NCBI GenBank assembly: GCA_000004695.1
Contig: CM000150.2
Span: forward strand, 64,001-128,000
DNA from: Dictyostelium discoideum
Taxonomy: Eukaryota
Direction of reading: 5' to 3'
DNA: 64,000 nucleotides
Program-made: the position numbers and the translations under genes
Notes under the pieces: model-generated
Databases searched by the model: none
Told to the model about the DNA's origin: nothing
The model's input: only the letters and a program-made list of their open reading frames with translations
Shown here: positions 3,791 to 62,150 of the stretch, piece after piece
Position numbering within the stretch: the first letter of the stretch is position 1
Layout of the letters: every line of letters begins with the position of its first letter

Positions 3791-3837
3791 CATTCCTACT
3801 TTAAAGATGCTTTTAAGTATTTTTTTTCGCCCCTGTG

Positions 3838-9178: not shown

Positions 9179-9299
9179 ATCATTACTCGGCCATGCGAAG
9201 CCAAACCCAGAGAGGTTTTTTTTTCACTATCTCGTTAAGCATTTCTGTAATAACGTAATCGCTATTACCCTCACCACGCAGTTCGATTATCATGGCAAT

Positions 9300-26640: not shown

Positions 26641-26697
26641 TAAATGCCGTTCGGGTTATCGACAGCTCCTCGTATCTTTACAATGCTGTTACAAAGA

Positions 26698-28522
26698 GAT
26701 AGCTTTTATAAAAAATTAATGGATATTACTGGTGAAAAAATAAAATATCCAACAAATGATCCAGATGACCCATGTAAACATTTATGTAACCAAAACCAGA
26801 TGAAATTTTTTATCAAGAAAATAATGAAAATAATGAAAATAATCAAACAATTGATAATGAAGAAAATCATGATACAATTGGGTTGGTACATAGTGAAGAT
26901 GAAAACAATGAAATTATAATGGATCAAAATGAAGCAAACATTAATAATGAAAATAATGAAAATAATGAAAATGAAAATTGTCAAAATGAACCAATAAATA
27001 ATAATCAAAATAATAATATAGATATTGAAAAATCAAAAAAAAAATTAAATGAAACTGAAATTGAATTTTTAATGTTGGGAATTGAAAACTCAATAAGTTT
27101 AAAGCTTCTTGAAAAATTTAAAAGTTTTATTGACAAAAATAAAACTAATTTAAATCAAATAAGATACACACCTCAATATATTGATAAATTATTTATGGAA
27201 GATTTTCAAATAAAAGGAGAAACATTTATAAATAAAAATTATGATCACTCAATTTTTTATTTTGAAATTAAAAAAGTATTAGAAACTTTATTAAATAAAA
27301 AGCAATTTTTTGAAAGAATAGATTTTGATACAGATTTTGAAACTGGAATTTATACAAATTATAAAAGTGGTCAACAATTTAAAGATTTAAAAAATAAAAA
27401 TAAAAATAAAATTGTTTTACTTAGAATATTCACTGATAGTATGCAGTGTCAAAACAAGAAAGATTATACTATAATGCTGGATACAGAAAATTATATTGGA
27501 AATTAATTTAAAAATAATAAATTATTATTATTTGTAGTACCAAATGATTGGTTACTTAATTTCCATCAAACAATTAGGGCATTGTTTTCATCTTTTATTG
27601 GTAATGGCTTTAATTTAATTATTGAAAATGAGCAAATAGATGTTGTACCGTTTGGACTGACAATGGATATTCCAGAATTTAGAGCATCGTGTAAACTTAA
27701 TGGACATAATCCAAATGAATATGCATGTCACACATGTGACAAACCAAGATATGGTTTATTTATTTGCAAATCAGGTACATTAAGAAAACAAGAAGATATT
27801 ACAAATTTTCACTCCACCAAACCAAATTATGCTGAACTAAATGCTGATATAGAATTAAAAAAAGTATGGGAAAAAAAAGCAAAAGATATTGGTATCAAAG
27901 GTGTGGACAGAGGGTGGGTCGAACCCTTGTCCATTAATTATTTAAAAACACAGCCGGACATTTTACATAATATTTTATAAGGTGTCGCACAAAGGTGTTT
28001 AAATTACATTTTTGATAAATATAAAAATAAAATTGCAAATTTTTTAAATAATTTAAAAAATGCAAAAATAATAGATAACAAACCAAAACCAGCAATTTCA
28101 CTATTTGCAAATAAAACAAGGAAAGGAAGAGATAATAGATCAATATTATATTACCTTTTGATGTCAATTAAAAATCAAATATCAAATGATGATTTTTTAA
28201 TTATGGAATAATTAGTAACTATATGTTTTAAATTATACAGTGACTCTTTTGATGAAAATGATTTAAATTCACTTCAAGAATTAATTGAAAGTAAATTTAA
28301 TTACTGAAACAGAAATAATGAATTTCCACTTGTAATTACATTATCCAATTTATATAAAAAATTTAGGTGCTCCAAAATACACTTCAGCTGAAACTTTTGA
28401 AGCACAATTATCAAGAATTAAAAATTATTTAAATAATAATACAAATAATAGGGATGAACAATATGAAAGGGTTTCCAAAGAAAACATGGTGAAATTTTTT
28501 AATTCAGTAGATAAATTAAAAA
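26698..28522 (+). mobile_element. Beta DNA-transposon fragment, 5'-truncated, with multiple stop codons.
   Basis: Colinear with 5130-6960. ORF pieces lie at 26883-27506 and 27582-27980. Confidence 0.7.
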
Positions 28523-29421
28523 CACAGCGATGAAAGTTACACCTTTAAAGCAACTTTAAATTAAATTAAAGTGGATTTAAAGTCCTATAAAAAAGTCACT
28601 TAAAAATTAATTTAAAAGCAATTTTTTAAATGACCTTTAAAATCACCTTTAAAATCACCTTTAAAATTACCTTTAAAATCACCTTTAAAATTAACTTTAA
28701 AATGACCTTGAAAATTACCTTTATAATGCTCTTTAAAATTAACTTTAAAATGCCCTTTAAAATTACCTTTATAATGCTCTTTAAAATTACCTTTAAAATG
28801 ACCTTTAAAATGACCTTTAAAATTACCTTTATAATTTTTTTTAAAATTAAGTTTAAAATGCCCTTTAAAATTAACTTTATAATGCTCTTTAAAATTACTT
28901 AAAAATATGATTAAAAACTATATTAATAATTACATTTTAAATCTCCTTAAAAATTGAATTTTAAAGTTTATTAATAATTACATTTAAAAGCACCTTATTA
29001 ATAATGCAAAAATAAATAAAAAAATTTTAAAAATTATTTTAAAACTATAGTATGAAATAAAATTTTATGTGAACAATAAAATACACAGATATATTATTTT
29101 TTAATAATAAAATTTATTTTTAAATTTTAAAAATTATTTAAAACTTTTATTGGGAAGAATTTAAGTAAAGTGCAGAATGAGGAAATTGAAATGCTTCTTG
29201 TGCATCTTTTCTCATTTTAGCCTTAGAGTCAAATTTACTACTAAAATCATTTAATATTGAAATTAATCTCTTTATTAAAGGAACTGAATCTGGGTACCAG
29301 TGTTTCTCTTCACCTGTTTAACAAGAGTCAACAAACTCTTTTATGAAAATATCATTTTGATAATTTTCATAATTAATGTGGCTGAGAAAAAGAGAAAGTA
29401 AAGCAGGGGAAAACTGTATTT

Positions 29422-29471
<50 letters not shown>

Positions 29472-29749
29472 TATTTTGTAAATTTTGATTATATTAATTT
29501 ATACACACAATTTCATTACCAAAAAATACTTGGCTATCGGAAATATAAACTTTAAGATTGTGGTTTTTTTCACCTTTTGAATAAATGGCTAAACTGTCAG
29601 CTACTTTTGTTCTTGTGTTACTATCCTTATTACTTACCCATTTCGTTAACCTTGCAAAAATATTTTGACTGGTACAATCTTCGTTACTACCACCAGCTTG
29701 TTTAATTATTCCAGTAATAAAGAAATTTGAAACCTATTTATTTAAATTA

Positions 29750-29786
<37 letters not shown>

Positions 29787-32603
29787 ATTAATCTGGTAAC
29801 ATACATCGCCATCTGAAAAGTATTTACTTTGACAAACTTTCTGAAGACTTTCGTATTCCAATATGTATTGAAATCATTTTCGCTTTTTCAGTCTGCCCGA
29901 AAATGAAAAAAAATTAAAAAAAATCATTTTTTACATAAAAATGTAAAAATTATGTAAAAAAGTTTTTAATTTTTTGATTTATTATTTTTTGAAGCCGAGA
30001 TTTTATCGTGGCATTTGTAAATTATAAGGTAATTGGTATCATCAATTTGAATTGGTAAAACATTATTTAGAATATTATCATATGTAATATAATTTAATTC
30101 ATTTGAAAGAAAATGGTATTTGTTAAATTGGTCACCAACATATTTGTCAAATAATTTAATAATATTGCATGTTTTATTATGTTATCATCCATTTCAATCA
30201 TTGATATTGAATTGATAATACCTGACCATCTACCTGAAAGTTCATTATCTGATGCAACTTCAACTGCATCACCAACATTGTATATTTCTTTATTATTTTT
30301 AATTGATGAGTGATTATTTATATTTTTATAATTTTGAAATAATGAATCTAATTTAATTTTTATGTTATCTAAATTATCTGGATTTTTTATTTTGTTACCA
30401 ATAATTAAAGCTGTACTTTCAATTTCAATACTTTTTAATTTATCTACTGATTTAAAAAATTTCACCATGTTTAATTTGGTAACCCTTTCATATTGTTCGT
30501 CCCTATTATTTGTATTATTATTTAAATAATTTTTAATTCTTGAGAATTGTGCTTCAAAAGTTTCAGCTGAAGTGTATTTTGGTGCACCCCAATTTTTTAT
30601 ATAAATTGGATAATGTAACAACAAGTGGAAATTCATTATTTCTGTTACTTTAAACATCTTTGCGCGACACCTAATAAAATATGTAAAATGTCTGGTTGTG
30701 TTTTTAAATAATTAATGGACAAGGGTTCGACCCACCCTCTGTCCACACCTTTGATACCAATATCTTTTGCTTTTTTTCCCATACTTTTTTTAATTCTATA
30801 TCAGCATTTAGTTCAGCATAATTTGGTTTGGTGGAGTGAAAATTTGTAATATCTTCTTGTTTTCTTAATGTACCTGATTTGCAAATAAATAAACCATATC
30901 TTGGTTTGTCACATGTGTGACATGCATATTCATTTGGATTATGTCCATTAAGTTTACACGATGCTCTAAATTCTGGAATATCCATTGTCAGTCCAAACGG
31001 TACAACATCTATTTGCTCATTTTCAATAATTAAATTAAAGCCATTACCAATAAAAGATGAAAACAATGCCCTAATTGTTTGATGGAAATTAAGTAACCAA
31101 TCATTTGGTACTACAAATAATAATAATTTATTATTTTTAAATTAATTTCCAATATAATTTTCTGTATCCAGCATTATAGTATAATCTTTCTTGTTTTGAC
31201 ACTGCATACTATCAGTGAATATTCTAAGTAAAACAATTTTATTTTTATTTTTATTTTTTAAATCTTTAAATTGTTGACCACTTTTATAATTTGTATAAAT
31301 TCCAGTTTCAAAATCTGTATCAAAATCTATTCTTTCAAAAAATTGCTTTTTATTTAATAAAGTTTCTAATACTTTTTTAATTTCAAAATAAAAAATTGAG
31401 TGATCATAATTTTTATTTATAAATGTTTCTCCTTTTATTTGAAAATCTTCCATAAATAATTTATCAATATATTGAGGTGTGTATCTTATTTGATTTAAAT
31501 TAGTTTTATTTTTGTCAATAAAACTTTTAAATTTTTCAAGAAGCTTTAAACTTATTGAGTTTTCAATTCCCAACATTAAAAATTCAATTTCAGTTCCATT
31601 TAATTTTTTTTTTGATTTTTCATTATCTAAATTATTATTAAGATTATTATTTATTGGTTCGTTTTGAGCATTTTCATTTTCATTATTTTCATTATTTTCA
31701 TTATTAATGTTTGCTTCATTTTCATCTATTCTAATTTCATTGTTTTCATCTTCACTATGTACCAACCCAATTATATCATGATTTTCTTCATTATCAATTG
31801 TTTGATTATTTTCATTATTTTCATTATTTTCTTGATAAAAAATTTCATCTTGGTTTTGGTTACATAAATGTTTACATGGGTCATCTGGATCATTTGTTGG
31901 ATATTTTATTTTTTCACCAGTAATATCCACTAATTTTTTATAAAAGCTATCTCTTTTTTGATTATTTGTAATAATTTTATTTTGTTCATTTTTACATTTT
32001 TTGGTGTTGAAATGTCCATTTACATCATAAAATTGTTTATAAGAACGGTAATATGCAAGACAAAATGGACATATATTTTTATGCATAATATAATGAATAA
32101 TAATATTTTTAAAATTCTTTAATTTTTCTCTGCAATTAATGCATGACATGTTATTTAAATTCATTTTGTTTGCTGGCTGGAAATTAAAAATAATATTTTT
32201 TTTTTTTTTTTCCTCGAGTTTTTACGTTTTTTTTTTTTTTTTTTTTTCATTTTATTCAAATTTTAGCATTTTAGCAAGTAGATATATGATTTAGTACTTA
32301 GAATTTTATATTTAGAGGGATATACCCCATTTTCAAAAAATGACCGGGAACCTATGACCCTGTCTATACCTTTTTCTTTTTAAAATATTAAAAAAAAAAA
32401 CTATAAAATCTGCCCAATTTATTGTAAAACTACACTAATGCAATAATATACATGTGCACTCGTTAATTGTTTATTAATTATAAAAAATAAAAAATAAAAA
32501 ATCTTTTTTTATATGTATGTTTATACTTATAATATAAATATGAAAAACAAATAATTAAATTTTTTTTTTTTTTTTTTTGATATTTTTCGCTTTTTGAAAT
32601 GAA
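28523..32603 (-). mobile_element. Beta DNA transposon, inverted near-full-length copy. It includes the right-end subterminal repeats (28523-28900).
   Basis: It is the reverse complement of 4489-8799. The large ORF is in pieces at 32164..31142, 31066..30704 and 30657..30094. Gene 2 retains its middle and last exons but lacks exon 1. The terminal sequence at about 32580-32603 is degenerate. Confidence 0.65.
31142..32164 (-). pseudogene. Beta large-ORF N-terminal portion. The N-terminus (MNLNNMSCINCREKLKNFKNIII…) is intact and the downstream part is frameshifted.
   Basis: Supplied ORF, homologous to 4914-5940. Confidence 0.6.
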
Positions 32604-32829
32604 AAGTAAAATTTAAAATAACATAATATAAAACCCAAGGCAATTGAAACACTTATTTATTATTAATTAATAAAAATAATAATAATAGAATTCAATTGCC
32701 ACTGAAACAAATAAATAAAGAATTAAAATTACTTTGGTTATCTTTTTAGTTTTTTTTTTTTTTTAATTTTCATAATTTTTTTTTTTTTCTTTTATTTTCT
32801 TATTTTTTTTTTTTTTTTAATAAATTTGA

Positions 32830-33135
32830 AATAAATAGTGTAAAAATTGATTTGAAATGTATTTAAAATGCATTTAAAATGTATTTTAAAAAATATAATT
32901 AATAAAAGCTTAAAAAAGGATTAATAAGTAATTTTAAATTACATTAAAAATAACTTTTTTAAATTTATTATAAAGTGATTAAAACATTATTTAAAAACCG
33001 CTTTATAATAAATTTAAAAGGTCATTTTTAATGTAATTTTAAATGACCTTAAAAATATCTTTAAAATTACCTTTTTAAAAAGCAAATTTTAAGCCAATTT
33101 AAAGTTGATTTAATGGTGTAATTTTCATCGCTGTG
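32830..33135 (+). mobile_element. MITE/beta-type right-end fragment with TTTAAAGG repeats and a terminus …TCATCGCTGTG at 33135.
   Basis: It has the same terminus as 8799. Confidence 0.55.
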
Positions 33136-34615
33136 TGGAAAGTTTACTTCCTGTTCTTCTGAAAACGGTTGTTGGTACCGTTGGCAGATTTGGTATTGTT
33201 GCTACCTGATGCAACATTACTTGGTGATCCATTGAAGTTGTTAGATCGGCCATTACTCCCACTACTGGATTTATTATCGCTACTGTTTCCTGTAGTGTTA
33301 TTACCACTTGGGTTAACTAATTTCTTGACATTGGGCTTGGAATGATAATTCAATTTTAACAATGATTGTTTAGCTTCGTTGTTCTTTCTGATTGACTTGG
33401 CTAGCTTTCTTACACGTTCAGTTTCAGTTTCATCAAAAATCTTTGGTGTATCCTTGATCTTAATTGGTAAGAGTACTTCAGAACCATAGATTTCTTTAGC
33501 GATGTTGTTACGAAGGACACGACTAAGCGATGCTTGAGCATTAACAACTAAGACGATTGCTCTCTGAGTTAAGTAACTAATAAGTTCTACATCGACATTA
33601 GAGCTATCAGATGATAAGATACTTGACATGAGAAGCAAAGGTTTCAAGCTATCGTTGATTCGCTTTTCAACAATCAACAAGTCAGTATCATTGTTCTTGA
33701 CGTTGGGTGATACAGTAATACCTTCAGGTGTACCGAATGGAGCGAAATTCACTTGGAAGTTAGATGGAAAGTTGAATACTTTATTCAATTCGGATATCTC
33801 ATCTTTCTTGAGGATTCATTCTTCTTCGACGACATTGTTACTTGATTCATCTTCACTTTGTTCATTCTCAGTGTCAGAGTCATCATGAGAAGGTTGGCTA
33901 CGTGAATTGGTATTAGATGAGAACATAGGTTCTTTCATGAATCTTGTTAAGGCTAAGGAAAGGTTGTTGATTTGATCCTCCATTGATTTCATTCTTAAAT
34001 CAAAGGATTCAGCGCTATTAGAGGTAGAGGTACTACCACTAGAGGCTTCATTATTATTAACAGTGGTAGACATATTTTATTGTTGATATCTAAAATTATA
34101 ATATGAGAAAAATAATAATATTAAAAATTAATAAAGAGAAATAATTATTTGTATAAAATTTGTGTGTGTGTGTATCTTAAATATATATAGGAGGAATTCC
34201 CAAATAAAATAAATCAAATTGTTTTAGTTTTTTGTGCCACTATTTATACGTTTTTATTTTCTTAAAAATTTCTCAAAACTCAAAAAAATAAGTGTTTTCG
34301 ACCCTTCACAACTTTGTGCATTGTGTCGGTTCGGAATTTTTATGTTTTTCGACCTTGCGCAATGATCGCGTCATTGTGCCGGTTCGAAATTTTTACTTTT
34401 CTTCGAAAATTTTTTATTCTTCGAATGTTCTAGAACATTCTAAAAAATTATCTTAAATATTTGGGATCGCGTCATTGTGCCGGTTCGAAATTTTTACTTT
34501 TCTTCGAAAATTTTTTATTCTTCGAATGTTCTAGAACATTCTAAAAAATTATCTTAAATATTTGGGAAATTAAAATAAATAAATGTTATTCATAATATAT
34601 ATATGATAATATAAA
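33136..34615 (-). mobile_element. DIRS-1 fragment F comprising ORF1, with an internal deletion of about 250 bp, and a left ITR that carries a 70-bp internal duplication.
   Basis: ORF pieces lie at 33144-33788 and 33816-34073. The duplicated ITR segments are 34370-34440 and 34480-34550. Confidence 0.75.
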
Positions 34616-34858
34616 CACCGTCCAATAGCTCGTTAATGGATATAATTCTTTCGTGGAACGTTTTAATGTGCGGGTGTTTCCGCGCCAATGACGGCTAGCT
34701 GGTGGTCGCTTTTTGTAATAACAAACAAGATTGAACAGAGATATCATCATTAGCGATCAACTTAAATAAATAGTCGACAGTCTGGGGAGTAGTGGGCATT
34801 TCTGGATCGATAAGGTAAGCGTGACGATTATTTTAAATGGTTTCGCCTAAGCCCTTAA

Positions 34859-35108
34859 CTACTGTAGCAAAGCACGTTTGAAATATAAATTAAATACCAC
34901 AACTAGAACGTTAGGGTTACGTATAGCATACTCAATTAACCAGCGAGTTTTCCCAGTTTGACGTGAGCCACTGAAGCCAATTGTAAACAACTCTCGTAAA
35001 TGACATGCCTTAGTACCGCCAAGATTATTAGCAGCGCTACGCATTATTAATCGCAATACTTTTCTCAAGTTCTTGAACTATCGCATCATAATCAATTGTA
35101 GACGTCAT
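34859..35108 (-). pseudogene. P-loop NTPase pseudogene with a Walker A motif GFSGSRQTGKT. The N-terminal ORF MTSTIDYDAIVQELEKSIAINNA stops and then frameshifts into the Walker A frame.
   Basis: The SRQxGKT signature resembles the Walker A motif of T4 gp17 large terminase (SRQLGKT). An SD sequence GAGGT lies 9 nt upstream of the ATG. The G5 paralog (61993-62139) is truncated by a TAA stop after the Walker A serine-arginine. Confidence 0.4.
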
Positions 35109-35120
35109 GATTTTTTTACC

Positions 35121-35288
35121 TCATTTATTTAAGTGGTTGTATGAACTCACAGGGTTATAGTCCTCATAAACAGGAAGTAGTAGACCAGGTGCATTAGGCA
35201 TTGTTATTAATACACGCTGCCCACGCACATAAGGTTGGTTGTTAACATATTTAAAATCAGTTGCCACATAGCCTTTTGGAATTTCCAT
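35121..35288 (-). CDS. Small ORF of 55 aa (MEIPKGYVATDFKYVNNQPYVRGQRVL…). Its stop codon overlaps the RBS of the next gene.
   Basis: An intact paralog lies in G5 (62151-62328) with an in-frame 3-codon indel. The gene layout is bacterial-style. Confidence 0.4.
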   Translation of the reverse strand: MEIPKGYVATDFKYVNNQPYVRGQRVLITMPNAPGLLLPVYEDYNPVSSYNHLNK

Positions 35289-35530
35289 GGTAAACTAATC
35301 CTCTTAATAGGGGACCGATGGCGGGTTGACCGTCAGACTTCTACAACACCCAACCACGTAATATCGGAGTGCTTCTGTCATTGTTATTTTATTTTTAGAT
35401 GCTACGCGGTTGATTGTGGTTTACTTACACCAAAGTGTAAGCGTCGGTTATTTGCTGGCATACTTTCAGCCACGTCCCAAGTCTCCAATTCACCGCCTTC
35501 CTGCTATTAATGGTGCCTAATGACGGACAT

Positions 35531-35568
35531 TCATCTCAAAATAAAACCAGGAGGGGTAAAACCCTCCT
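35531..35568 (-). terminator. Rho-independent terminator-like hairpin (AGGAGGG-GTAAAA-CCCTCCT) followed on the minus strand by TTTTATTTT.
   Basis: A 7-bp GC-rich stem plus a T-run, conserved in the G5 paralog at 62567-62601. Confidence 0.45.
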
Positions 35569-35889
35569 ATATACTAATCTTACGGACGTGGTGATATCGA
35601 ATACCACATTCTGTAATTTGGATCATGCTGGGTGTTATTTAATGTTTTGGCTATTGCTATAACCGACCGAGCTACTGTGTTTCCACAGAAATGACTCGAA
35701 CCATCGACCCACAGCGTGTATATAGTGAGCTGGTGGTTTAACCTCCCAAGGGCGGTGTTCGACTATTCGTCAAACGAAGACAAGCTTTTTAATTTAATTA
35801 AACTACCACACCATCTTCAATTTCGATTTTGGTAGAAGAGTTAGATTCAGTTAATCAATGTTGGCTTCGAAATCCAGAATCTCTTTTTC

Positions 35890-36078
35890 CTACTGCTTGA
35901 TTACTTTGCTGATCTCCAGCGGCTGATAACGTTCGATAACTGGATTAACGAACACAGCAATGGAAGCTTCATCGGCTTTCTTAGTACCGTTGAATGCTTC
36001 GGTGCGCGCGGTATTTTCACGCTGGTCAAAATTGGAGTTAGCGGTAACGTTGTGACGAGATATCGATTCGTAGTTCAC
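35890..36078 (-). CDS. Small ORF of 62 aa, probably GTG-initiated, of unknown function.
   Basis: Supplied ORF sitting in a compact gene array. Weak support. Confidence 0.25.
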   Translation of the reverse strand: MNYESISRHNVTANSNFDQRENTARTEAFNGTKKADEASIAVFVNPVIERYQPLEISKVIKQ

Positions 36079-36129
36079 TTTCTAAGCTTTGACAATATCG
36101 CGTTTCTCGCCTAATGCATTATGTGCATG

Positions 36130-36761
36130 TACAGCAAAGAAAAATCCACATTTAAAGCAAATTTAAAGCAAAGTTGATTTAAATTGGATTTAAATTGAAT
36201 TTAAAGCCGGGTTTAAAAAATTCATTTTCAAGGTAATTTTTAAGATAATTTTAAGATATTTAAAAATGCCTTTAAAATTTATTTTAAAATAATTTTAAAG
36301 AGGATTTAAAGTTGATTTAAAGTAGATTTAAAGTGAATTAAAATTTCCTTTAAATATAAATTTAAGGTTTTTAATAAAAAACATCTAATTTTAGATCAAA
36401 AAAATGGGGATAAAATATTCTATCATTTTTAAATTATCATCAAAGCAATCAAATGGTGTAATGGTTGATGAGACTACCCTTTGATTGATGAGACTACCCT
36501 TTTGGTAAATTTTCAAAAATTTCAAAAAAAAATTTTATAAAATTTATCCGTTAAATAACGGCTTCGAACTCCGGACCTCGCTTTTAAAGCCATTAAAAAG
36601 CTAATTCCTAAGGTAATTATAAAGGTAATTTATAAGGTGGTTTTAAAGTAACCTTAAAAATTACCTTTAAAATTACCTTAAAAATTGCTTTTGTACAGGA
36701 CTTTAAATTCGCTTTAAATTAAATTTAAATTTGCTTTAAAGGTGGTTTTTCTTTCACTGTG
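36130..36761 (-). mobile_element. MITE-like TIR element copy. It has the opposite orientation to 23858-24605 and is inserted between G2 and G3.
   Basis: Its termini are TACAGCAAAGAAAAATCC… and …GGTGGTTTTTCTTTCACTGTG. The interior is colinear with the 23858 copy and includes the tRNA-like core at about 36440-36500. Confidence 0.7.
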
Positions 36762-37026
36762 TAGTGTATTCTTTGCCAGCTACGGTAATAAGCGTACTAG
36801 CGTTGGACAATATCACTTTAGCAAGGATATCTTCACGCACACGAATGATATCTTGTAAACCATGGTAGTTTTCTTTGATCGCATCAGAAACCGCCCCAAC
36901 GGAATCATTGAAACCAGCTTCTTGGGCGAATTCATCAGTACCGCGAGTTAGTGAAATAAGCATCAGACCGTTGGACATGGATTTAACCGTGGCCAATGTA
37001 CGGGTAATTGAAATCTTAGTAGCCAT
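36754..37026 (-). CDS. Small ORF of 90 aa (MATKISITRTLATVKS…). Its last codons run into the inserted TIR element.
   Basis: TATAAAGG and AGGAAA lie upstream of the ATG. With the insertion removed, the frame continues three codons to a TAA stop. Confidence 0.35.
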   Translation of the reverse strand: MATKISITRTLATVKSMSNGLMLISLTRGTDEFAQEAGFNDSVGAVSDAIKENYHGLQDIIRVREDILAKVILSNASTLITVAGKEYTTQ

Positions 37027-37157
37027 TATATTTCCTTTTCCTTTATACGTTATAGACAGAGTGCCGAACCCTGTTTTAGAGAACGGTAGAGGCTTTCACT
37101 CTTAGGCTTTCATCGATCCCCGTTCGTGACCGTTTAGCGATTTCTTTAGATCTTAAT

Positions 37158-37247
37158 TGGTAGAGAATTAGAGATTCGAACTCTAGGAGCGGTTTCCCGC
37201 CCGACGGTTTTTAAGACCGTTACCTTGAACCACTCGGACAATTCTCC
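37158..37247 (-). tRNA. Type-II tRNA-like gene, probably tRNA-Leu (anticodon UAA), with a long variable arm and an encoded 3' CCA.
   Basis: Hand fold. The acceptor is GGAGAAT/ATTCTCT and the anticodon stem is ACGGT/ACCGT with loop CTTAAAA. The variable hairpin is GCGG-GAAA-CCGC. The T-arm is TAGAG-TTCGAAT-CTCTA, followed by A and CCA. The D-arm pairing is imperfect. Confidence 0.5.
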
Positions 37248-37406
37248 AATTGGGTGACACCCATTAGAATTTCACGTAGCTCTATAGCTATTACAGTCAA
37301 TACTAACACTTCACAAAAAGGCCTGGTTAACCCCTACTGATTGAACTTAGGTTGTCTTAGAGTTCCTACCAGGAAAACTGCAACTGATATCATTGTTTGG
37401 TGATTA

Positions 37407-37439
37407 CAAAAAAGACCAGTGTTATTGGCTGGTCTTTTT
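37407..37439. terminator. Bidirectional intrinsic-terminator-like hairpin AAAAAAGACCAG-TGTTATTGG-CTGGTCTTTTT. A mirrored copy lies in the palindrome arm at about 37905-37940.
   Basis: An 8-bp stem flanked by an A-run and a T-run. Confidence 0.45.
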
Positions 37440-37611
37440 GAGTTATACGATACCGTTCTCTTTACGATAACGGAATATTTTTGATCTATCGATATTAAGC
37501 ATTTCTGCAATTACTTAATCGCTATTACCTCACCAAGCAGTTCGATAATCATGGCAATATGTTCTGGGTTAAGTTGTGTCTTTTGGCTTTTACTTAATGC
37601 TGATCTACCAA

Positions 37612-37739
37612 CACAGCGAAGAAAAAACCACCTTTAAATTCGCTTTAAATTAAATTTAAATTTGCTTTAAAGTCCCGAATTAAAGCAATTTTAAAGGTAA
37701 TTTTAAAGCGAATTTAAAGGTGGTTTTTTCTTCGCTGTG
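37612..37739. mobile_element. Centre of the palindrome. It is MITE left end nt 1-98, then the reverse complement of nt 31-1, joined at a TTTAAAG microhomology.
   Basis: CACAGCGAAGAAAAAACCACCTTTAAATTCG lies at 37612 and its reverse complement ends at 37739. Confidence 0.7.
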
Positions 37740-38016
37740 TTGGTAGATCAGCATTAAGTAAAAGCCAAAAGACACAACTTAACCCAGAACATATTGCCAT
37801 GATTATCGAACTGCTTGGTGAGGTAATAGCGATTAAGTAATTGCAGAAATGCTTAATATCGATAGATCAAAAATATTCCGTTATCGTAAAGAGAACGGTA
37901 TCGTATAACTCAAAAAGACCAGCCAATAACACTGGTCTTTTTTGTAATCACCAAACAATGATATCAGTTGCAGTTTTCCTGGTAGGAACTCTAAGACAAC
38001 CTAAGTTCAATCAGTA

Positions 38017-38644
38017 AAACACTAAAAATTACCTTTAAAATTACCTTTAAAATTACCTTTTTAATCGCTTTAAAAGCGAGGTCCTGAGTTCGAAGCCGTT
38101 ATTTAACGGATAAATTTTTTAAAATTTTTTTTTTTAATTTTTCAAAAATTACCAAAAGGGATTCGATCCCCCGACCCTCTATCAAAGGGTAGTCTCATCA
38201 ACCATTACACCATTTGATTGCTTTGATGAAAATTTAAAAATGATAGAATATTTTATCCCCATTTTTTTGTTCTAAAATTAGATCTTTTTTATTAAAAACC
38301 TTAAATTTATGTTTAAAGGAAATTTAAATTCACTTTAAATCTACTTTAAATCTACTTTAAATCCTATTTAAAATTAATTTAAAATAAATTTTAAAGGTAT
38401 TTTTAAATATCATAAAAATTATCTTAAAAATTACCTTAAAAATCACCTTTAAAATCACCTTTAAAATCACCTTTATAAATTTATTTTAAAGCAAATTTTA
38501 AAGGCATTTTTAAATATCTTAAAAATTACCTTAAAAATTACCTTAAAAATGAATTTTTTAAACGCGGCTTTAAATTCAATTTAAATCCAATTTAAATCAA
38601 CTTTTCTTTAAATTTGCTTTAAAGGTGCATTTTTCTTTGCTGTG
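38017..38644 (+). mobile_element. Remainder (about nt 100 to the end) of the same MITE copy, with a right terminus …TTTCTTTGCTGTG at 38644.
   Basis: Colinear with 23955-24605. Once the inverted-duplication insert is removed, the whole MITE is flanked by an AA target duplication (…CTACCAA| and |AAGAGATCC). Confidence 0.65.
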
Positions 38645-38693
38645 AAGAGATCCAGTTCTACCATTCTGGCGATGCTTGCTTGCCGATCAGTCA

Positions 38694-38808
38694 TTAACGA
38701 ATCTTCTTCAGTAACTGAGTACGAAGAATTGGATTAGCATCTCGCTTGGCTTTATCGGCCGCTGCAGTGCGTTTTGTACAGTTACCAAAATCAAAAGATT
38801 TACATGGC
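38694..38808 (-). CDS. Small ORF of 38 aa (MPCKSFDFGNCTKRTAAADKAKRDANPILRTQLLKKIR). It has a perfect RBS (GGAGG 7 nt upstream), and its stop overlaps the next start (TAATGA).
   Basis: Read directly. The downstream overlapping gene MTDRQASIARMVELDL… is interrupted by the MITE. Confidence 0.4.
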
Positions 38809-38851
38809 ATGACATCCCTCCATTGACTTAAAAGAAAAATAAGGGGATAAC

Positions 38852-39052
38852 ATGTGTTCTGGTCAAGCCATACCCTTAATGAGGGTGTTAATCTTCGTCA
38901 TAATAATTTTGATCTTTTGGAGTACTTGCATGCAGAGAGGTTATGGGGACCATCCCTACACATTATATCCGGTACTGTGTAAAACTTTACATATCAATAG
39001 ATCAAAAATAAGAGGATGTAGTACATCCCCTCTTTCAATTAAGGCAACATGA
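38852..39052 (+). CDS. Small hydrophobic ORF of 66 aa with an RBS (AAGGGG 5 nt upstream of the ATG).
   Basis: Supplied ORF. A hydrophobic stretch (LMRVLIFVIIILIFW) suggests a membrane peptide. Confidence 0.3.
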   Translation: MCSGQAIPLMRVLIFVIIILIFWSTCMQRGYGDHPYTLYPVLCKTLHINRSKIRGCSTSPLSIKAT

Positions 39053-39330
39053 CCCTAGTCAAGTAGCGCATTGTGTCACGTAATAGGGATACACGCCCGC
39101 GATTAAGATCAACAATACCGTAGTTCAAATGAATAGAATCGTTATATATACCTTCTGCGTTAAGCCTGAAGTTCAAACGCGAACGGAGCGTAGTATGAAC
39201 CTGACCTTCACTTCTGAAAATGTGTACTCGTTATCTAACGCCACATCAAAGGCAGGCCAACCTGTTAATGCTGTTGATCTTATCCCAATTACGTGAAACA
39301 ATGCGCTACTTGGCTAAGGTCATGGTGGCC
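39048..39330. repeat. Pair of imperfect inverted repeats of about 60-75 bp (39048-39125 and 39255-39330). They flank a core of about 130-190 bp that carries a 33-codon ORF with a GGAG RBS.
   Basis: The left repeat reads CATGACCCTAGTCAAGTAGCGCATTGTGTCACGTAATAGGGATA…AGATCAACAATACC. The right repeat is its reverse complement with a 14-bp indel. Confidence 0.5.
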
Positions 39331-39385
39331 AATACAACTCCACCTGTAAACCTTTCACCAACCACTTGTCATTGACTAATAACTA

Positions 39386-39707: not shown

Positions 39708-40222
39708 TAATAATTTAATTTATTAAATTACATTTATATTAAATATATATAAATATATTATGAATAAAATTTATTTATATTATCATATATATATATATAT
39801 TATGAATAACATTTATTTATTTGAATTTCCCAAATATTTAAGATAATTTTTTAGAATGTTCTAGAACATTCGAAGAATAAAAAATTTTCGAAAGAAAAGT
39901 AAAAATTTCGAACCGGCACAATGACGCGATCATTGCGCAAGGTCGAAAAACTGAAAAATTCCGAACCGACACTATGCACAAAGTTGTGAAGGGTCGAAAA
40001 CTCTTATTTTTTTGAGTTTTGCTAAATTTTTAAGAAAATAAAAACGTATAAATAGTGGCACTAAAAACTAAAACAATTTGATTTATTTTATTTGGGAATT
40101 CCTCCTATATATATTTAAGATACACACACACACAAATTTTATACAAATAATTATTTCTCTTTATTAATTTTTAATATTATTATTTTTTCTCATATTATAA
40201 TTTTAGATATCAACAATAAAAT

Positions 40223-41230
40223 ATGTCTACCACTGTTAATAATAATGATGCCTCTAGTAGTAGTACCTCTGCCTCTAATAGCGCTGAATCCTTTGATTTA
40301 AGAATGAAATCAATGGAGGATCAAATCAACAACCTTTCCTTAGCCTTTACAAGATTCATGAAAGAACCTATGTTCTCTTCTAATACCAACTCACGTAGCC
40401 AACCTTCTCATGATAACTCTGACACCGAGAATGAACAAAGTGAAGATGAATCAAGTAACAATGTCGATGTTCCAACCGATTATCAATTATCCGATACCTT
40501 ACTTGGTCAGTACAAACATATGGTAAACAATAAAGGTTTACTCGTCGAAGAAGAATGTATCCTCAAGAAAGATGAGATATCCGAATTGAATAAAGTATTC
40601 AACTTTCCATCTAACTTCCAAGTGAATGTCGCTCCATTCGGTACACCTGAAGGTATTACTGTATCATCCAACGTCAAGAACAATGATACTGATTTGTTGA
40701 TTGTCGAAAAGCGAATCAACGATAGCTTGAAACCTTTGCTTCTCATGTCAAGTATGTTATCATCTGATAGCTCTAATGTCGATGTAGAACTTATTAGTTA
40801 CTTAACTCAGAGTGCAATCGTCTTAGCCGTTAACGCTCAAGCATCGCTTAGTCGTGTCCGTCGTAACAACATCGCTAAAGAAATCTATGGTTCTGAAGTA
40901 CTCTTACCAATTAAGATCAAGGATACACCAAAGATGTTTGATGAAACTGAAACTGAACGTGTAAGAAAGCTAGCCAAGTCAATCAGAAAGAACAACGAAG
41001 CAAAACAATCATTGTTAAAATTGAATTATCATTCCAAGCCCAATGTCAAGAAATCAGTTAACTCAAGTGGTAATAACACTACAGGAAACAGTAGTAATAG
41101 TAAATCCAGTAGTGGGAGTAATGGCCGATCTAACAACTTCAATGGATCACCAAGTAATGTTGCATCAGGTAGCAACAATACCAAGTCTGCCAACGGTACC
41201 AACAACCGTTTTCAGAAGAACAAGAAGTAA
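40223..41230 (+). CDS. DIRS-1 ORF1 (Gag-like).
   Basis: Supplied ORF of 335 aa. Confidence 0.8.
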   Translation: MSTTVNNNDASSSSTSASNSAESFDLRMKSMEDQINNLSLAFTRFMKEPMFSSNTNSRSQPSHDNSDTENEQSEDESSNNVDVPTDYQLSDTLLGQYKHMVNNKGLLVEEECILKKDEISELNKVFNFPSNFQVNVAPFGTPEGITVSSNVKNNDTDLLIVEKRINDSLKPLLLMSSMLSSDSSNVDVELISYLTQSAIVLAVNAQASLSRVRRNNIAKEIYGSEVLLPIKIKDTPKMFDETETERVRKLAKSIRKNNEAKQSLLKLNYHSKPNVKKSVNSSGNNTTGNSSNSKSSSGSNGRSNNFNGSPSNVASGSNNTKSANGTNNRFQKNKK

Positions 41231-44144
41231 ACTTACCAGTAGGTGGACGTCTGTTCCACCACAAACAAGTTTGGAAAGAATTGGGTCTTCCAAACTTTTG
41301 TCAAGAGGTCGTAAATGGATTAAAAGTCCATCTACTTCCAAACTTCAAGCCGATGCCAAACCCAATTCCGATTTCAATTCCAGAGGGTCCAAAATCAGAT
41401 TGCATCACAAAGGAAGTACAAGACTTGTTATTAGACGATGCCATCGAACAAGTACTTCCAAACCGTTATTCAAAGCGCGTTTTTTACTCCAACGTGTTTA
41501 CGGTTCCAAAACCTGGAACGAATCTACATCGTCCAGTTCTCGATTTAAAAAGGTTAAACACTTACATCAACAACCAATCATTCAAGATGGAAGGAATCAA
41601 GAATCTACCATCAATGGTCAAACAAGGTTATTACATGGTAAAACTCGATATCAAGAAAGCTTACCTCCACGTTTTAGTAGATCCGCAATACAGAGACTTA
41701 TTTCGCTTCGTGTGGAAAGGTTCGCACTACCGTTGGAAAACAATGCCGTTCGGGTTATCGACAGCTCCTCGTATCTTTACAATGTTGTTAAGACCTGTAC
41801 TTCGAATGTTGAGAGATATCAACGTATCCGTCATCGCATACTTGGACGATCTATTAATCGTCGGTTCAACAAAAGAAGAATGTTTATCCAACCTCAAAAA
41901 GACAATGGACTTACTTGTCAAACTAGGTTTCAAGTTAAATCTAGAAAAGAGTGTTCTCGAACCAACTCAATCAATTACATTTCTCGGATTACAAATCGAT
42001 TCGGTATCAATGAAGCTTCTTGTTCCCAAAGAAAAGAAGAAAAGTGTCATCAAGGAAATAAGAAACTTTTTAAAACTAGATTGTTGCTCCCCAAGAAAGC
42101 TTGCTGGTTTAAAAGGAAAGCTAATCGCACTGAAAGATGCAGTCATCCCTTTCAGACTTTACACTCGTCGAACAAACAAGTTTCACTCTCAGTGTCTGAC
42201 TCTAGCCAATGGAGATTGGGATCAATCATTCCCCATTCCTCAAGAGGTCAAGTCAGAGATTTCACATTGGTTAACAGTTCTAAACCAATGGAATGGAAAA
42301 GAAATCAGTCTGTTTCCAAGTTACGACTATGTTCTTACAACCGATGCCTCGGAATCAGGTGCAGGTGCCACACTCAAGAAAGGAAACAAGGTAATCAAAA
42401 CTTGGTCATTCCAGTGGTCAACAACTCAATCAAACATGTCGTCAAATCGTCGAGAAATGCTCGCGCTGCTAATGGCCTATCAAGCGCTATGTCAGAAACT
42501 GAACAACTGCAAGCTGAAGATCCAAACCGACAATACTACCACTCTCTCATACATCAATCGCCAGGGTGGTCAGATACAAGATCTCTCAGTTCTGTTCGAA
42601 CAACTTTGGAAACAATGCCTCAAGAAGAAAGTGAACTTGATTGGAGAGCATATTCCAGGATTCTTCAATGTAAAAGCCGACCACCTCAGTCGTCTTTCAG
42701 AGATGAATCACAAATCATCGACCAGAGTAATCAAGAGTTACATCTGGCAACTGAAGAAGGAAGTGTTCAATCGCATCCAACTTCAATTCGGTCAAATACA
42801 GATGGATCTGTTCGCATCTCACCTCAACCATCAAACGAACAACTACTCAACAATAAGAATGAATGCACTCAACCTCGATTGGAGTCAATGGAAGCAATGT
42901 CTGGCCTTTCCACCACCCATTCTTTTGCCTTCTATCCTGGAGAAGATGAACTCATCCAGTTCGAAGAAGGTTTCTATAATACTGATCTTCCCAATCTGGA
43001 GATCAGCAACTTGGTATCCGATGATTCAAGCACAAGTTCCTCGTCATCATCGTCACATGTTTCCTCAAGTACTGGGAACATTCCAAGAAGTATTGACCAA
43101 ACAATCAGTAGAGTCGATACCAATCCAGATTCAACAACGTTGGAAGCTGGGGATTATTCAACTTTCCAATCTCATGTAATGTCCTTCGCTCGTACAACAA
43201 ATACAAAAACAGCTGAGCTGTTAATGAAGTCATGGGAACCTTCAACTCTCAAAGTATATAGCTCCAGTTATACAAGATTCCGCAATTTCTGTACTTTGAA
43301 CTCTTTGAATCCAGCAAACATTACCTTAGTTGTTTTCATGGATTATCTTACACATCTATTCAAACACAAACCTCCGTTAGCTTTCTCAACTATTAACGGT
43401 CATCGATCTATGTTGAATCAGTTGTTACTCCTTAGGAATCAAACTGATATTGTTAATGATCCATTCATTACAAGAATTATGACTGGTATTCACAAGTTGC
43501 GTCCTTCATCTGCAAAGTATAAAGAGATATGGGATGCAAATCAAGTATTCAAGCACTTATCTACTATCAAAGTCATCCCCAAGTACACATACACTGCGCT
43601 ATTAAACAAGACACTTGTACTCTGTAAAATGTTTGGTTTAGCAAGATCATCAGACTTGGTGAAGTGGTCGTTCAAAGGTCTCATTATTACTCCTGACTCA
43701 ATCAAAGGTCCCGTTATTAATGCTAAAGAACAAAGAAGTGGTATTGTTTCAATCTTAGAATTAACATCGTTAGATGATACTAACTCTCAAGTGTGCCCTG
43801 TTCGCCACCTTGCAACATACCTTAGAGCATCTAAAGGAAGAAGAAAGCCCCATTCGGGTGACTCTGTCTTTATTAAGAATGAAGGTGAACCGCTCCAAGT
43901 TAATGATATTAATTCAATTGTACTATCAACACTCTCAAAGTCAGGTATTGATATTGTCAAGTTCAAATCTCACTCTACCCGTTCCGCTATGGCTTCTCTG
44001 CTGTTGTCCAATAACGTTCCGTTCCACGTTGTCAAAAAGATGGGTCGTTGGAAATCAAACGATACTGTAGATACCTTCTACGATAAAAGAATCATTGGTG
44101 AAAAATCTGGTGGTTTCTTAAATACTGTCGTCCAAATTTCATAA
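41043..44144 (+). CDS. DIRS-1 ORF3 overlapping frame with the tyrosine recombinase at the C-terminal end.
   Basis: 1033-aa open frame with the conserved C-terminal recombinase region. Confidence 0.7.
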   Translation: MSRNQLTQVVITLQETVVIVNPVVGVMADLTTSMDHQVMLHQVATIPSLPTVPTTVFRRTRSKLTSRWTSVPPQTSLERIGSSKLLSRGRKWIKSPSTSKLQADAKPNSDFNSRGSKIRLHHKGSTRLVIRRCHRTSTSKPLFKARFLLQRVYGSKTWNESTSSSSRFKKVKHLHQQPIIQDGRNQESTINGQTRLLHGKTRYQESLPPRFSRSAIQRLISLRVERFALPLENNAVRVIDSSSYLYNVVKTCTSNVERYQRIRHRILGRSINRRFNKRRMFIQPQKDNGLTCQTRFQVKSRKECSRTNSINYISRITNRFGINEASCSQRKEEKCHQGNKKLFKTRLLLPKKACWFKRKANRTERCSHPFQTLHSSNKQVSLSVSDSSQWRLGSIIPHSSRGQVRDFTLVNSSKPMEWKRNQSVSKLRLCSYNRCLGIRCRCHTQERKQGNQNLVIPVVNNSIKHVVKSSRNARAANGLSSAMSETEQLQAEDPNRQYYHSLIHQSPGWSDTRSLSSVRTTLETMPQEESELDWRAYSRILQCKSRPPQSSFRDESQIIDQSNQELHLATEEGSVQSHPTSIRSNTDGSVRISPQPSNEQLLNNKNECTQPRLESMEAMSGLSTTHSFAFYPGEDELIQFEEGFYNTDLPNLEISNLVSDDSSTSSSSSSSHVSSSTGNIPRSIDQTISRVDTNPDSTTLEAGDYSTFQSHVMSFARTTNTKTAELLMKSWEPSTLKVYSSSYTRFRNFCTLNSLNPANITLVVFMDYLTHLFKHKPPLAFSTINGHRSMLNQLLLLRNQTDIVNDPFITRIMTGIHKLRPSSAKYKEIWDANQVFKHLSTIKVIPKYTYTALLNKTLVLCKMFGLARSSDLVKWSFKGLIITPDSIKGPVINAKEQRSGIVSILELTSLDDTNSQVCPVRHLATYLRASKGRRKPHSGDSVFIKNEGEPLQVNDINSIVLSTLSKSGIDIVKFKSHSTRSAMASLLLSNNVPFHVVKKMGRWKSNDTVDTFYDKRIIGEKSGGFLNTVVQIS
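41281..43179 (+). CDS. DIRS-1 ORF2 RT/RNase H.
   Basis: The YLDD motif is present in a 632-aa intact frame. Confidence 0.85.
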   Translation: MGLPNFCQEVVNGLKVHLLPNFKPMPNPIPISIPEGPKSDCITKEVQDLLLDDAIEQVLPNRYSKRVFYSNVFTVPKPGTNLHRPVLDLKRLNTYINNQSFKMEGIKNLPSMVKQGYYMVKLDIKKAYLHVLVDPQYRDLFRFVWKGSHYRWKTMPFGLSTAPRIFTMLLRPVLRMLRDINVSVIAYLDDLLIVGSTKEECLSNLKKTMDLLVKLGFKLNLEKSVLEPTQSITFLGLQIDSVSMKLLVPKEKKKSVIKEIRNFLKLDCCSPRKLAGLKGKLIALKDAVIPFRLYTRRTNKFHSQCLTLANGDWDQSFPIPQEVKSEISHWLTVLNQWNGKEISLFPSYDYVLTTDASESGAGATLKKGNKVIKTWSFQWSTTQSNMSSNRREMLALLMAYQALCQKLNNCKLKIQTDNTTTLSYINRQGGQIQDLSVLFEQLWKQCLKKKVNLIGEHIPGFFNVKADHLSRLSEMNHKSSTRVIKSYIWQLKKEVFNRIQLQFGQIQMDLFASHLNHQTNNYSTIRMNALNLDWSQWKQCLAFPPPILLPSILEKMNSSSSKKVSIILIFPIWRSATWYPMIQAQVPRHHRHMFPQVLGTFQEVLTKQSVESIPIQIQQRWKLGIIQLSNLM

Positions 44145-44598
44145 TATATATATATATATGATAATATAAATTAAAAATTTAATTTATTAAATTATATTTT
44201 ATATTAAATATATATATATATATTAGTCCCATCCCACCCGCCCTTAGTCGGAATTCCATAAATCAAATTGTTTTAGTTTTTAGTGCCACTATTTATACGT
44301 TTTTATTTTCTTAAAAATTTAGCAAAACTCAAAAAAATAAGAGTTTTCGACCCTTCACAACTTTGTGCATAGTGTCGGTTCGGAATTTTTCAGTTTTTCG
44401 ACCTTGCGCAATGATCGCGTCATTGTGCCGGTTCGAAATTTTTACTTTTCTTTCGAAAATTTTTTATTCTTCGAATGTTCTAGAACATTCTAAAAAATTA
44501 TCTTAAATATTTGGGAAATTCAAATAAATAAATGTTATTCATAATATATATATATATATTTAATATAAAATATAATTTAATAAATTAAATTTTTAATT

Positions 44599-49462: not shown

Positions 49463-49830
49463 CAGGGGCGAAAAAAAATACTTAAAAGCATCTTTAAAGT
49501 AGGAACGTAAATAGTACTATTATAAAGTATACTTAATAAGTATATTTATTAAGTATACTTATTAAGTGTACTTATTAAGTATATTTATTAAGTATATTTA
49601 TTAAGTATACTTATTAAGTATATTTATTAAGTATATTTATTAAATATATTTATTAAATATATTTATTAAGTATATTTATTAAGTATATTTAATAAGTATA
49701 TTTATTAAGTATATTTATTAAGTATATTTATTAAGCATAATTATTAAGTATAATTATAAAATATAATTATTAATTAAAATTATTAAGTATAATTAATAAG
49801 GGTAATTATAAAGTTCACTTAATAAGAATA
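49463..49830 (-). mobile_element. Alpha-type right end in inverted orientation, comprising the terminus CACAGGGGCGAAAAAAAA and a TAAGTATACTTA array.
   Basis: It is the reverse complement of 3700-3837. Confidence 0.6.
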
Positions 49831-50190
49831 CTTAAAAAGTTAAAAATAACATTTTATAATAATAATTTAAAATAAATTTAAAAAAAAAAAAAAAAAAAAC
49901 TAAAAAAAAAAAAAAGAATTAATTAAAAAGTAAAGTATTTGAAATCAGAAATTTTTTTTATTTAATTGTGAAAATTCTAAGGGTATTAATATGTTGACTT
50001 TAACAAGGGTCATACAACATTTATAATTGACTAATTTGAAAAGCAGAACTTTATTTCCATTATTATTTGTACCAAAAGCATTTACTTTACAGGTTCAAAT
50101 AAAAGAAGGGACAACCTAAAATATAATTGTTTTTTAAATTATATTAATCTCTTTATTTTATATTATTATTTTTTTTTTTCTTTGAACCAG

Positions 50191-61924: not shown

Positions 61925-62150
61925 ATAAATTAAATTTACTAGAACGTTAGGGTTACGGATAGCATACTCAAATAACCAGCGAGTTTTCCCAGTTTAACGT
62001 GAGCCACTCAAGCCAATTGTAAACAACTCTCGTAACTGACATGCCTTAGTACCGCCAAGGTTATTAGCAGCGCTACGCTCATTATTAATCGCAATACTTT
62101 TCTCAATCGCATCATAATCGATGGTTGTCGTAGACGTCATGATTTTTTAC

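Follow-up and report, generated by a model that had tools for sequence, protein, structure and literature searches.

A MITE-associated inverted duplication in a DIRS-1 repeat cluster of Dictyostelium discoideum and its probable origin by fold-back synthesis

The window analyzed here, a 64,000-nucleotide stretch of the Dictyostelium discoideum contig CM000150.2, contains at positions 37335-38016 two identical DNA arms that face each other across the end of a miniature inverted-repeat transposable element (MITE). Such an arrangement could in principle represent a functional hairpin or cruciform, a mutation caught shortly after its origin, or a product of sequencing and assembly. The question raised by this locus is which of these it is, and, if a mutation, by what route it arose.

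The inverted repeat and its surroundings

The window is eukaryotic and consists of a mosaic of nested 4.8-kb DIRS-1 elements with inverted terminal repeats of ~320 bp, whose overlapping ORFs code for gag, an RT/RNase H/methyltransferase-like protein and a tyrosine recombinase. It also contains a Ty3/gypsy-type element, and a protein predicted at this locus carries the annotation Dictyostelium discoideum; the region is a DIRS-1 repeat cluster of the centromere type found in this organism. Lodged between DIRS fragments is an island (34467-39373) of ~37-40% G+C with stops throughout all of its reading frames. Its decayed gene is a homologue of Ea357_199 of Erwinia phage Ea35-70, a gene conserved in jumbo phages, to which it is 47% identical across 95 residues at the start and 37% identical across the 99 that follow; 146 phage records match an Ea357_199-like gene. 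What a preceding analysis, made from the letters of this DNA without database searches (hereafter the sequence-only reading), had called island DNA is better described as degraded jumbo-phage-like DNA inside a DIRS-1 cluster. The identities of about 88-90% which that reading gave for paralogous island pieces hold on measurement, with 91.5% for 37495-37611 versus 9235-9352 and 89.6% for 34902-35641 versus 61938-62674. The presence of decayed jumbo-phage-like DNA, accompanied by tRNA genes, as diverged paralogous pieces within a DIRS-1 cluster is an observation in its own right and the more surprising item of the region.

Several further searches concern these surroundings. The chromosome CM142509.1, reached through the DIRS-1 gag at 40223-41230, was considered as a second sequence of the same locus and rejected: it carries a DIRS-1 copy that is 100% identical and flanked by other DNA to either side, represents a different locus and is therefore uninformative on the inverted repeat. 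Exact-product look-ups found no record for the 90-aa ORF at 36754-37026, a 58-aa ORF in the arm, a 31-aa ORF spanning the first junction or a second DIRS gag, and searching for homologues of the 58-aa ORF in the arm returned no relatives. The 277-bp flank that forms most of each arm (flank X) includes the 3' end of a small, decayed minus-strand ORF and a GACCAG(N9)CTGGTC hairpin with a T-run behind it. The hairpin was recognized by reading the sequence only, its loop being longer than the limit of the terminator scan, which hence made no call.

The arms, 37335-37649 and 37702-38016, are each 315 bp long and pair without a single mismatch when position i is set against position 75351-i, and their complementarity ends sharply at 37334/38017. 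Between them lie 52 single-copy nucleotides (37650-37701, nt 39-90 of the MITE), in which 12 of the 26 symmetric pairs are mismatched. The feature is thus not a perfect DNA palindrome, which would have no spacer and all bases paired; it is a spaced inverted repeat, or quasi-palindrome, with 315-bp arms, 0 mismatches and a 52-nt spacer. In terms of what was copied, 37709-38016 is the reverse complement of 37335-37642 over 308 nt with 0 mismatches. As single-stranded DNA, the 682 nt are predicted to form one hairpin with a folding energy of -400.6 kcal/mol, versus -62 +/- 5 for shuffled sequences (z = -69). No second closely spaced, high-identity inverted repeat occurs in the 64-kb window, where the other close palindromes are AT-rich tandem arrays with 70-85% complementarity.

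Most of the anatomy proposed by the sequence-only reading survives this examination. Its inverted duplication of the 277-bp flank plus the first 31 bp of the MITE is confirmed, with arms free of mismatches, and the TTTAAAG microhomology at which it placed the join is found at 37702-37708. Its "perfect 682-bp palindrome" was right in coordinates and arm identity and wrong in perfection, owing to the non-palindromic centre, and the MITE head preceding the join comprises nt 1-97, one base fewer than the nt 1-98 it had given. It overlooked the right-hand junction altogether: there, MITE nt 98-127 are gone and a scar, AAACAC, occupies 38017-38022. The parts of the locus are collected in Table 1.

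Table 1. Features of the inverted repeat, of the MITE family and of neighboring DNA (window coordinates)
Feature	Position	Strand	Remarks
tRNA-Leu(UAA)	37158-37247	-	ARAGORN; Rfam tRNA 50.7 bits; part of the phage-like island; 88 bp left of the inverted repeat
Left arm, flank X (277 bp)	37335-37611	+	Original copy; identical to the ancestral allele (locus L003 of the comparison contig)
MITE copy C head, nt 1-97	37612-37708	+	Identical to the ancestor for exactly 97 nt
MITE nt 1-38	37612-37649	+	Completes the perfect left arm
Non-palindromic centre, MITE nt 39-90	37650-37701	.	Putative fold-back loop; itself an imperfect hairpin (predicted folds)
Junction 1, TTTAAAG (7 nt)	37702-37708	.	MITE nt 91-97 = reverse complement of nt 32-38
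Inverted MITE nt 31-1	37709-37739	-	Head motif on the minus strand from 37739; absent from L003
Inverted flank X (277 bp)	37740-38016	-	100% complementary to 37335-37611; absent from the independent contig
Right arm	37702-37739 + 37740-38016		
Junction 2 scar, AAACAC	38017-38022	.	From comparison with the ancestral allele
MITE copy C remainder, nt 128-749	38023-38644	+	Identical to L003; 96% to copy A 23971-24605
MITE copy A (748 bp)	23858-24605	+	Intact reference; within a DIRS-1 gag ORF; TT target-site duplication
MITE copy B (632 bp)	36130-36761	-	Inverted relative to copy C; splits the phage Ea357_199-like gene at residue 95/99
MITE copy C	37612-38644	+	749 bp in ancestral form; AA target-site duplication
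Empty paralogous site for MITE C	9330-9375	+	…CTACCAAGAGAT…

The MITE family and the unduplicated allele

The element at the centre of the repeat is a MITE, with inverted termini, target-site duplications and the short, non-coding, multi-copy character of this class. It is an AT-rich element of 748 bp that starts with CACAGCRAAGAAAAA and ends with the inverted complement of this sequence; the head (CACAGCAAAGAAAAAACCACCTTTAAA) and the reverse complement of the tail (CACAGCAAAGAAAAATGCACCTTTAAA) agree at 25 of 27 positions. The window contains three copies (A, B and C), together with related fragments near 8.4-9.0 kb and 28.5-29.0 kb. The copies range from 632 to 749 bp, differ among themselves by 4-13%, and none has an ORF of at least 100 aa. 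Target-site duplications of 2 bp are evident for copy A (TT, by comparison with intact DIRS-1 copies) and for copy C (AA, by comparison with the paralogue at 9330-9375), and that of copy B is imperfect (TG/TA). At its 3' end copy C has the terminal inverted repeat ...CTTTGCTGTG, followed by the AA duplication. The paralogue at 9330-9375 is an empty site, and therefore 37611/37612 is the true boundary of the MITE insertion. In the head of copy B a 27-bp core lies in opposite orientation to that of A and C, with TTTAAA hexamers at its bounds. This flip, present in both assemblies compared here, is an older event, and it demonstrates that the palindromic hexamers have mediated an inversion in vivo.

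Protein look-ups led to a comparison contig, the unplaced 39,973-bp JBTAPE010000022.1 of assembly GCA_054883475.1 (loci L003 and L004). It aligns with the window over 25879-37721 at 99.86% and over 38015-58804 at 99.99% identity, so that the two are collinear over 11.8 kb on the left side of the feature and over 20.8 kb on its right, where there are 0 mismatches. Outside the junctions they are distinguished by one SNP, one 1-nt indel and differences in homopolymer length, about 7 differences over ~33 kb. In the contig, flank X runs into an intact MITE of 749 bp, and the inverted copy is absent. The ~30 nt lacking from the window (GTAATTTTTAAGGTTACTTTAAAATCACCT, MITE nt 98-127) are present in the contig and match copies A and B; the simple allele is therefore not a collapsed version of the palindrome. 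The contig thus carries the ancestral allele and the window the derived one, with a net change in length of +284 bp.

With both alleles in hand the junctions can be described to the base. Junction 1, situated at the foot of an imperfect hairpin of the unduplicated MITE, is spanned by GGTAATTTTAAAG to the left and CGAATTTAAAGG to the right of the join, and junction 2 correspondingly by CAATCAGTA and AAACACTAAAAATT. The second of these can be read in two ways: either a 6-nt filler, AAACAC, is followed by re-entry at MITE nt 128 with nt 98-127 lost, or re-entry occurs at nt 117/118 on a TA overlap, with three 1-nt deletions and nt 98-116 lost. Both readings are compatible with end joining, and the junction sequence (AAAACACTAAAAATTA) has no other template within the window. 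Diagnostic k-mers are GGTAATTTTAAAGCGAATTTAAAGG and TTCAATCAGTAAAACACTAAAAATTACC for the junctions of the window allele and TTTTAAAGGTAATTTTTAAGGTTACTTTAAAATCACC for the unduplicated one. The contig also upholds the template-switch or fold-back origin offered by the sequence-only reading, for it fixes the prior state and all four switch points.

The same comparison bears on age. Perfect identity of the arms is by itself no proof of youth because conversion between the arms could maintain it; an unduplicated allele in a genome only ~1 SNP per 33 kb apart, on the other hand, means that the palindrome is very recent, as had been surmised earlier from the arms. The event postdates the divergence of two genomes that are otherwise nearly identical. 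The duplicated allele is seen only in this window, the other assembly compared being without it, and the two assemblies could be from the same strain or read set, in which case the allele would represent culture heterogeneity or an artefact. [quoted passage not shown] Two intron-less ORFs of the window are on record, each at one position in GCA_054883475.1, and neither position is the sequence of the window itself.

Fold-back synthesis and its rivals

We read the feature as a structural mutation and not as a functional element. We consider it probable that it records a real in vivo event in the sequenced lineage, namely a fold-back templated insertion inside MITE copy C. The anatomy stands as described above; for the order of steps and the enzymes we infer the following course. 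A break or stalled fork within MITE nt ~98-127 would have left a 3' end terminating in TTTAAAG (nt 91-97), which would snap back onto CTTTAAA (nt 32-38) on the same strand, aided by an imperfect hairpin (nt 36-92) that was already there and leaving a loop of 52 nt. A polymerase would then extend the paired 3' end by ~308 nt, after which the new strand would unwind and join the other side of the lesion at MITE nt ~118-128 through an end-joining-type capture using at most 2 nt of homology or a short filler. Fill-in synthesis would finally produce the perfect 315-bp arms. The reverse order, with priming first on a 2-nt homology ~400 nt away, is much less plausible. The outcome can also be described as a four-point replication template switch.

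Predicted folds of the unduplicated MITE head agree with this course. The head folds better than all 200 of 200 shuffled sequences (z = -3.6; predicted hairpin at nt 36-92), and in a 3' tail that ends at nt 97 the predicted minimum-energy fold (-13.5 kcal/mol) pairs the terminal TTTAAAG with CTTTAAA, the 3' base included, such that this hairpin would constitute a ready primer-template. Within the family, the flipped core of copy B offers a precedent. The sequence-only reading had spoken of a hairpin-prone TIR; the hairpin propensity is borne out, and the part concerned is subterminal (MITE nt 32-97), not the terminal repeat itself. On the other side of the balance, the 308-nt tract is ~2 times as long as the longest insertion of the yeast assay (PMC11724301), and the allele is present in a single assembly and absent from a near-identical genome. 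Arms of 300 bp with a 52-bp spacer are furthermore expected to be somewhat unstable in vivo.

The absence of the inverted copy from an essentially identical genome would also be expected if a single aberrant molecule or read, formed in vitro or by a rare somatic event, had become the backbone of the assembly and survived polishing. We regard such an artefact as possible, if on balance doubtful. The feature shares with long-read fold-back chimeras, a concern that the sequence-only reading had already raised, and with palindromic contig ends the inverted duplication, the identity of the arms and an assembly of the long-read era. Furthermore, junction 2 has three small differences within ~10 nt, versus ~7 in ~33 kb elsewhere, a cluster which fits error-prone repair and fits equally well an unpolished stretch taken from one noisy read. 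Short-read polishing could also have equalized the arms because reads map to both, and pipelines combining Nanopore and Illumina data may let large backbone-specific insertions pass window-based polishing. Against this, the classic kinds of fold-back read (template-complement read-through, a missing SMRTbell adapter or a hairpin-ended fragment) are symmetric about the fragment end and remain inverted to the end of the read, whereas here a stretch of 52 nt at the centre lacks symmetry, the inverted copy having set in 59 nt behind the turning point, at a microhomology junction. Only 308 nt later the original orientation is regained within that MITE, 20-30 nt downstream, and the sequence stays collinear with the contig for 20.8 kb, whereas a chimera of this kind is symmetric and makes no return. 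Two switches of polymerase or ligation in one molecule are not to be expected when a library is prepared without amplification. In other places the window is no less accurate than the contig: at 36269 it fits the MITE consensus and the contig has a 1-nt deletion. The simple form of the chimera is thus a poor fit, and the caution voiced in the sequence-only reading stands.

Three other origins invoke the MITE or a function of the hairpin. Some transposase families make hairpins on flanking DNA, and a by-product of transposition, such as a transposase hairpin intermediate or an aberrant excision at the MITE end followed by repair, would accord with the position of the event less than 100 bp from the MITE terminus and with the mobility of the family, as seen from the clean 2-bp target-site duplications of copies A and C. 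We nevertheless hold it to be very unlikely: the turning point is internal (nt 38-91) whereas cleavage would be at nt 1, an intact MITE end and AA duplication are retained on both sides, head and flank were copied as one continuous template, and palindromic or P-nucleotide footprints of transposases measure a few nt, not 308. Recombination or gene conversion between copies B and C, or misassembly of their inversion isomers, is comparably improbable. The two copies are opposed, with their heads facing the 850-bp segment 36762-37611, and an inverted isomer would also set the reverse complement of flank X beside a MITE head; however, the inverted head at 37709-37739 is that of C itself and differs from that of B (CACAGCGAAGAAAAAACC versus CACAGTGAAAGAAAAACC), the end of the tract at 37335 is not a repeat boundary, and the left copy of flank X is retained in its original orientation. 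An old functional palindrome, whether a gene for a hairpin RNA or a miRNA-like RNA or a cruciform that binds protein, with arms kept identical by gene conversion, is the least credible of the alternatives. A perfect stem of 315 bp would be possible, transposon-derived small RNAs such as thug-S are known in Dictyostelium (PMC4894637), and a permissive Rfam search yielded sub-threshold matches to plant MIR precursor families (MIR2630, MIR2670 and others). The best of these reaches 115.4 bits against a gathering threshold of 144, all lie below gathering on both strands, and we rejected identity with a plant miRNA precursor, regarding the matches as generic matching of long hairpins. With an unduplicated allele in an almost identical genome the palindrome is neither old nor conserved, and its arms consist of degraded phage DNA that shows no sign of selection.

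Relation to known systems and significance

Fold-back synthesis, the reading we prefer, has its closest parallel in yeast, where ends of double-strand breaks fold back at an imperfect inverted microhomology of 10 nt, leaving a loop of 41 nt, Pol delta makes the inverted copy, and non-homologous end joining captures it with 0-5 bp of microhomology (median 2 bp); the insertions range from 2 to ~150 bp and are mostly shorter than 14 (PMC11724301). The present locus similarly has an inverted microhomology beside the presumed break, with 7-nt TTTAAAG/CTTTAAA pairing and a loop of 52 nt as against 41 nt in yeast. In both, the template is the sequence upstream of the end on its own strand, some sequence is lost at the second junction, and an inverted repeat is lengthened; the 0-5 bp of homology found at that junction in yeast may apply here as well, if the TA reading is right. 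Unlike in yeast, the tract here is 308 nt, outside the yeast size range, whose upper limit may reflect amplicon sequencing; furthermore, the host is Dictyostelium, with no known induced break.

In terms of the four-point template-switch model (PMC8794818, PMC7954356), synthesis would have left the MITE at nt 97, copied from nt 31 back to 37335 and returned at nt ~118-128. An exact reverse complement lies nearby, the ancestral allele is available and the return is close to the departure. The conversion of an imperfect hairpin into a perfect one in a single event likewise resembles quasipalindrome-associated switching (PMC7202029). Documented switches, however, usually involve tens of bases, the largest in a study of rRNA being 59 bp (PMC8794818), and the untidy return junction seen here, with its filler or deletions, is more like end joining. 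Snap-back synthesis in synthesis-dependent microhomology-mediated end joining (SD-MMEJ) also uses structure-forming repeats near a break to prime in cis before the product joins the other end. There, however, the tracts made are normally a few to tens of nt long and the new microhomology is used in the join (PMC5728401, PMC2943611), whereas the tract at the present locus amounts to 308 nt and the last join involves at most 2 nt. MITE-derived hairpin loci, such as hpRNA loci, young miRNA genes and thug-S (PMC4894637), share with this one a long perfect hairpin that consists partly of a non-autonomous DNA transposon; those loci arise from the inverted repeats of the element itself or from two adjacent copies, whereas here one end would have been copied by fold-back together with its flank. 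If real, the feature belongs to a type of mutation already described, of which it is an unusually long and clear-cut instance; artefact or not, it is no new biological system.

Should the allele prove an artefact, it would serve as a warning that long-read assemblies of repeat clusters may hold internal inverted insertions unlike the classic chimeras. If it is real, it provides a natural fold-back insertion of 308 nt whose ancestral and derived forms are both defined at single-base level in backgrounds that are almost isogenic, whose priming hairpin and microhomology can be identified, and whose size extends beyond the range of the yeast break-repair assays. A further and quite improbable prospect is that the palindrome, if fixed in the strain, is a newborn hairpin-RNA locus with a 315-bp dsRNA stem, giving rise to siRNAs against the MITE family and the phage-derived DNA; this is conceivable because the palindrome sits in a DIRS-1 centromere cluster that is transcribed and controlled by RNAi. 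It would then illustrate how fold-back synthesis can give rise to a small-RNA gene in a single step, with the ancestral allele surviving in a sister strain. More generally, a real event would mean that the palindromic, TTTAAA-rich ends of MITEs can seed large inverted repeats in the centromeric clusters of Dictyostelium, and such repeats are potential fragile sites or sources of hairpin RNA.

A decayed phage-like island

The DNA lying between the DIRS-1 fragments is a decayed, bacteriophage-like island, with paralogous pieces elsewhere in the window (see table). The island contains a homologue, in two halves, of the jumbo-phage gene Ea357_199 of phage Ea35-70 (47% and 37% amino-acid identity), which is matched by 146 phage records. 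Upstream of this homologue is a tRNA-Leu(UAA) in the same orientation as a tRNA in the phage, and Erwinia and Salmonella jumbo phages additionally give weak DNA-level matches to the island. Given that stops occur throughout all of its reading frames, that it carries insertions of host MITEs, and that its paralogous copies are about 90% identical, the island appears to be a resident part of the D. discoideum genome. It is also found in the assembly GCA_054883475.1. None of the papers in the library searched reports such an island in D. discoideum.

A second, truncated tRNA-like sequence, which resembles tRNA-Lys genes of Stenotrophomonas phages, adjoins DIRS-1 terminal-repeat sequence, and neither ARAGORN nor Rfam calls it.

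Features of the window and differences from contig JBTAPE010000022.1
Feature	Position	Strand	Detail
Island, decayed bacteriophage-like DNA	34467-39373		paralogous pieces 61938-62674 and ~8978-9925
MITE copies A, B and C	23858-24605, 36130-36761, 37612-38644		related ends at ~8799 and ~8977
Inverted pair, MITE copies B and C	36130-38644		630 bp, ~88-91% identical
Truncated second tRNA-like sequence	~9850-9925	minus	85% identity to Stenotrophomonas phage tRNA-Lys genes
AT-rich tandem arrays	3268-3795, 49503-49832		self-complementary units
Complete DIRS-1 copy	39773-44598		4,826 bp; counterpart L005, CM142509.1 ~58.5-63.4 kb
Difference from contig	29425-29433		A-run +9 nt in window
Difference from contig	32227-32228		T-run +2 nt in window
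Difference from contig	33139		single A/T SNP
Difference from contig	36269		C in window and MITE consensus, missing from contig

The MITE family and other inverted sequences

The MITE family is AT-rich, about 750 bp long and rich in (C)TTTAAA(G) palindromic motifs, with terminal inverted repeats that start with CACAGCRAAGAAAAA and target-site duplications of 2 bp (TT, AA). A 27-bp core in the head of copy B, bounded by TTTAAA hexamers, is reversed relative to copies A and C; since the orientation in copy B is that of the tail repeat, A and C probably carry the derived version. Between copies B and C lies an 850-bp segment containing the tRNA-Leu and the beginning of the phage gene. The inverted arrangement of the two copies could permit flip-flop inversion of this segment, but no sign of an inverted isomer was seen. 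By eye, the MITE interior at 38160-38225 (also 24110-24170 and 36420-36500) includes a stretch that looks like part of a tRNA, its minus strand showing the T-arm-like motif GGGGGATCGAATCCC; this stretch is reported neither by ARAGORN nor by a permissive Rfam scan.

Many overlapping 70-85% 'palindromes' arise from the two AT-rich tandem arrays, which match each other at about 80-88%.

Comparison with a second assembly

The unplaced contig JBTAPE010000022.1 of GCA_054883475.1 represents the same locus, and the only differences outside the palindrome are the four in the table. Their pattern suggests that the two sequences come from the same strain or very close ones, with residual homopolymer errors.

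The complete DIRS-1 copy of the window is 100% identical to that at L005, a locus on a 6.43-Mb chromosome of the same assembly, where the flanks on either side differ from those in the window and another partial DIRS-1 copy (99.95%) lies close by. This combination of identical copies and differing flanks indicates a very recent transposition or homogenisation of DIRS-1.
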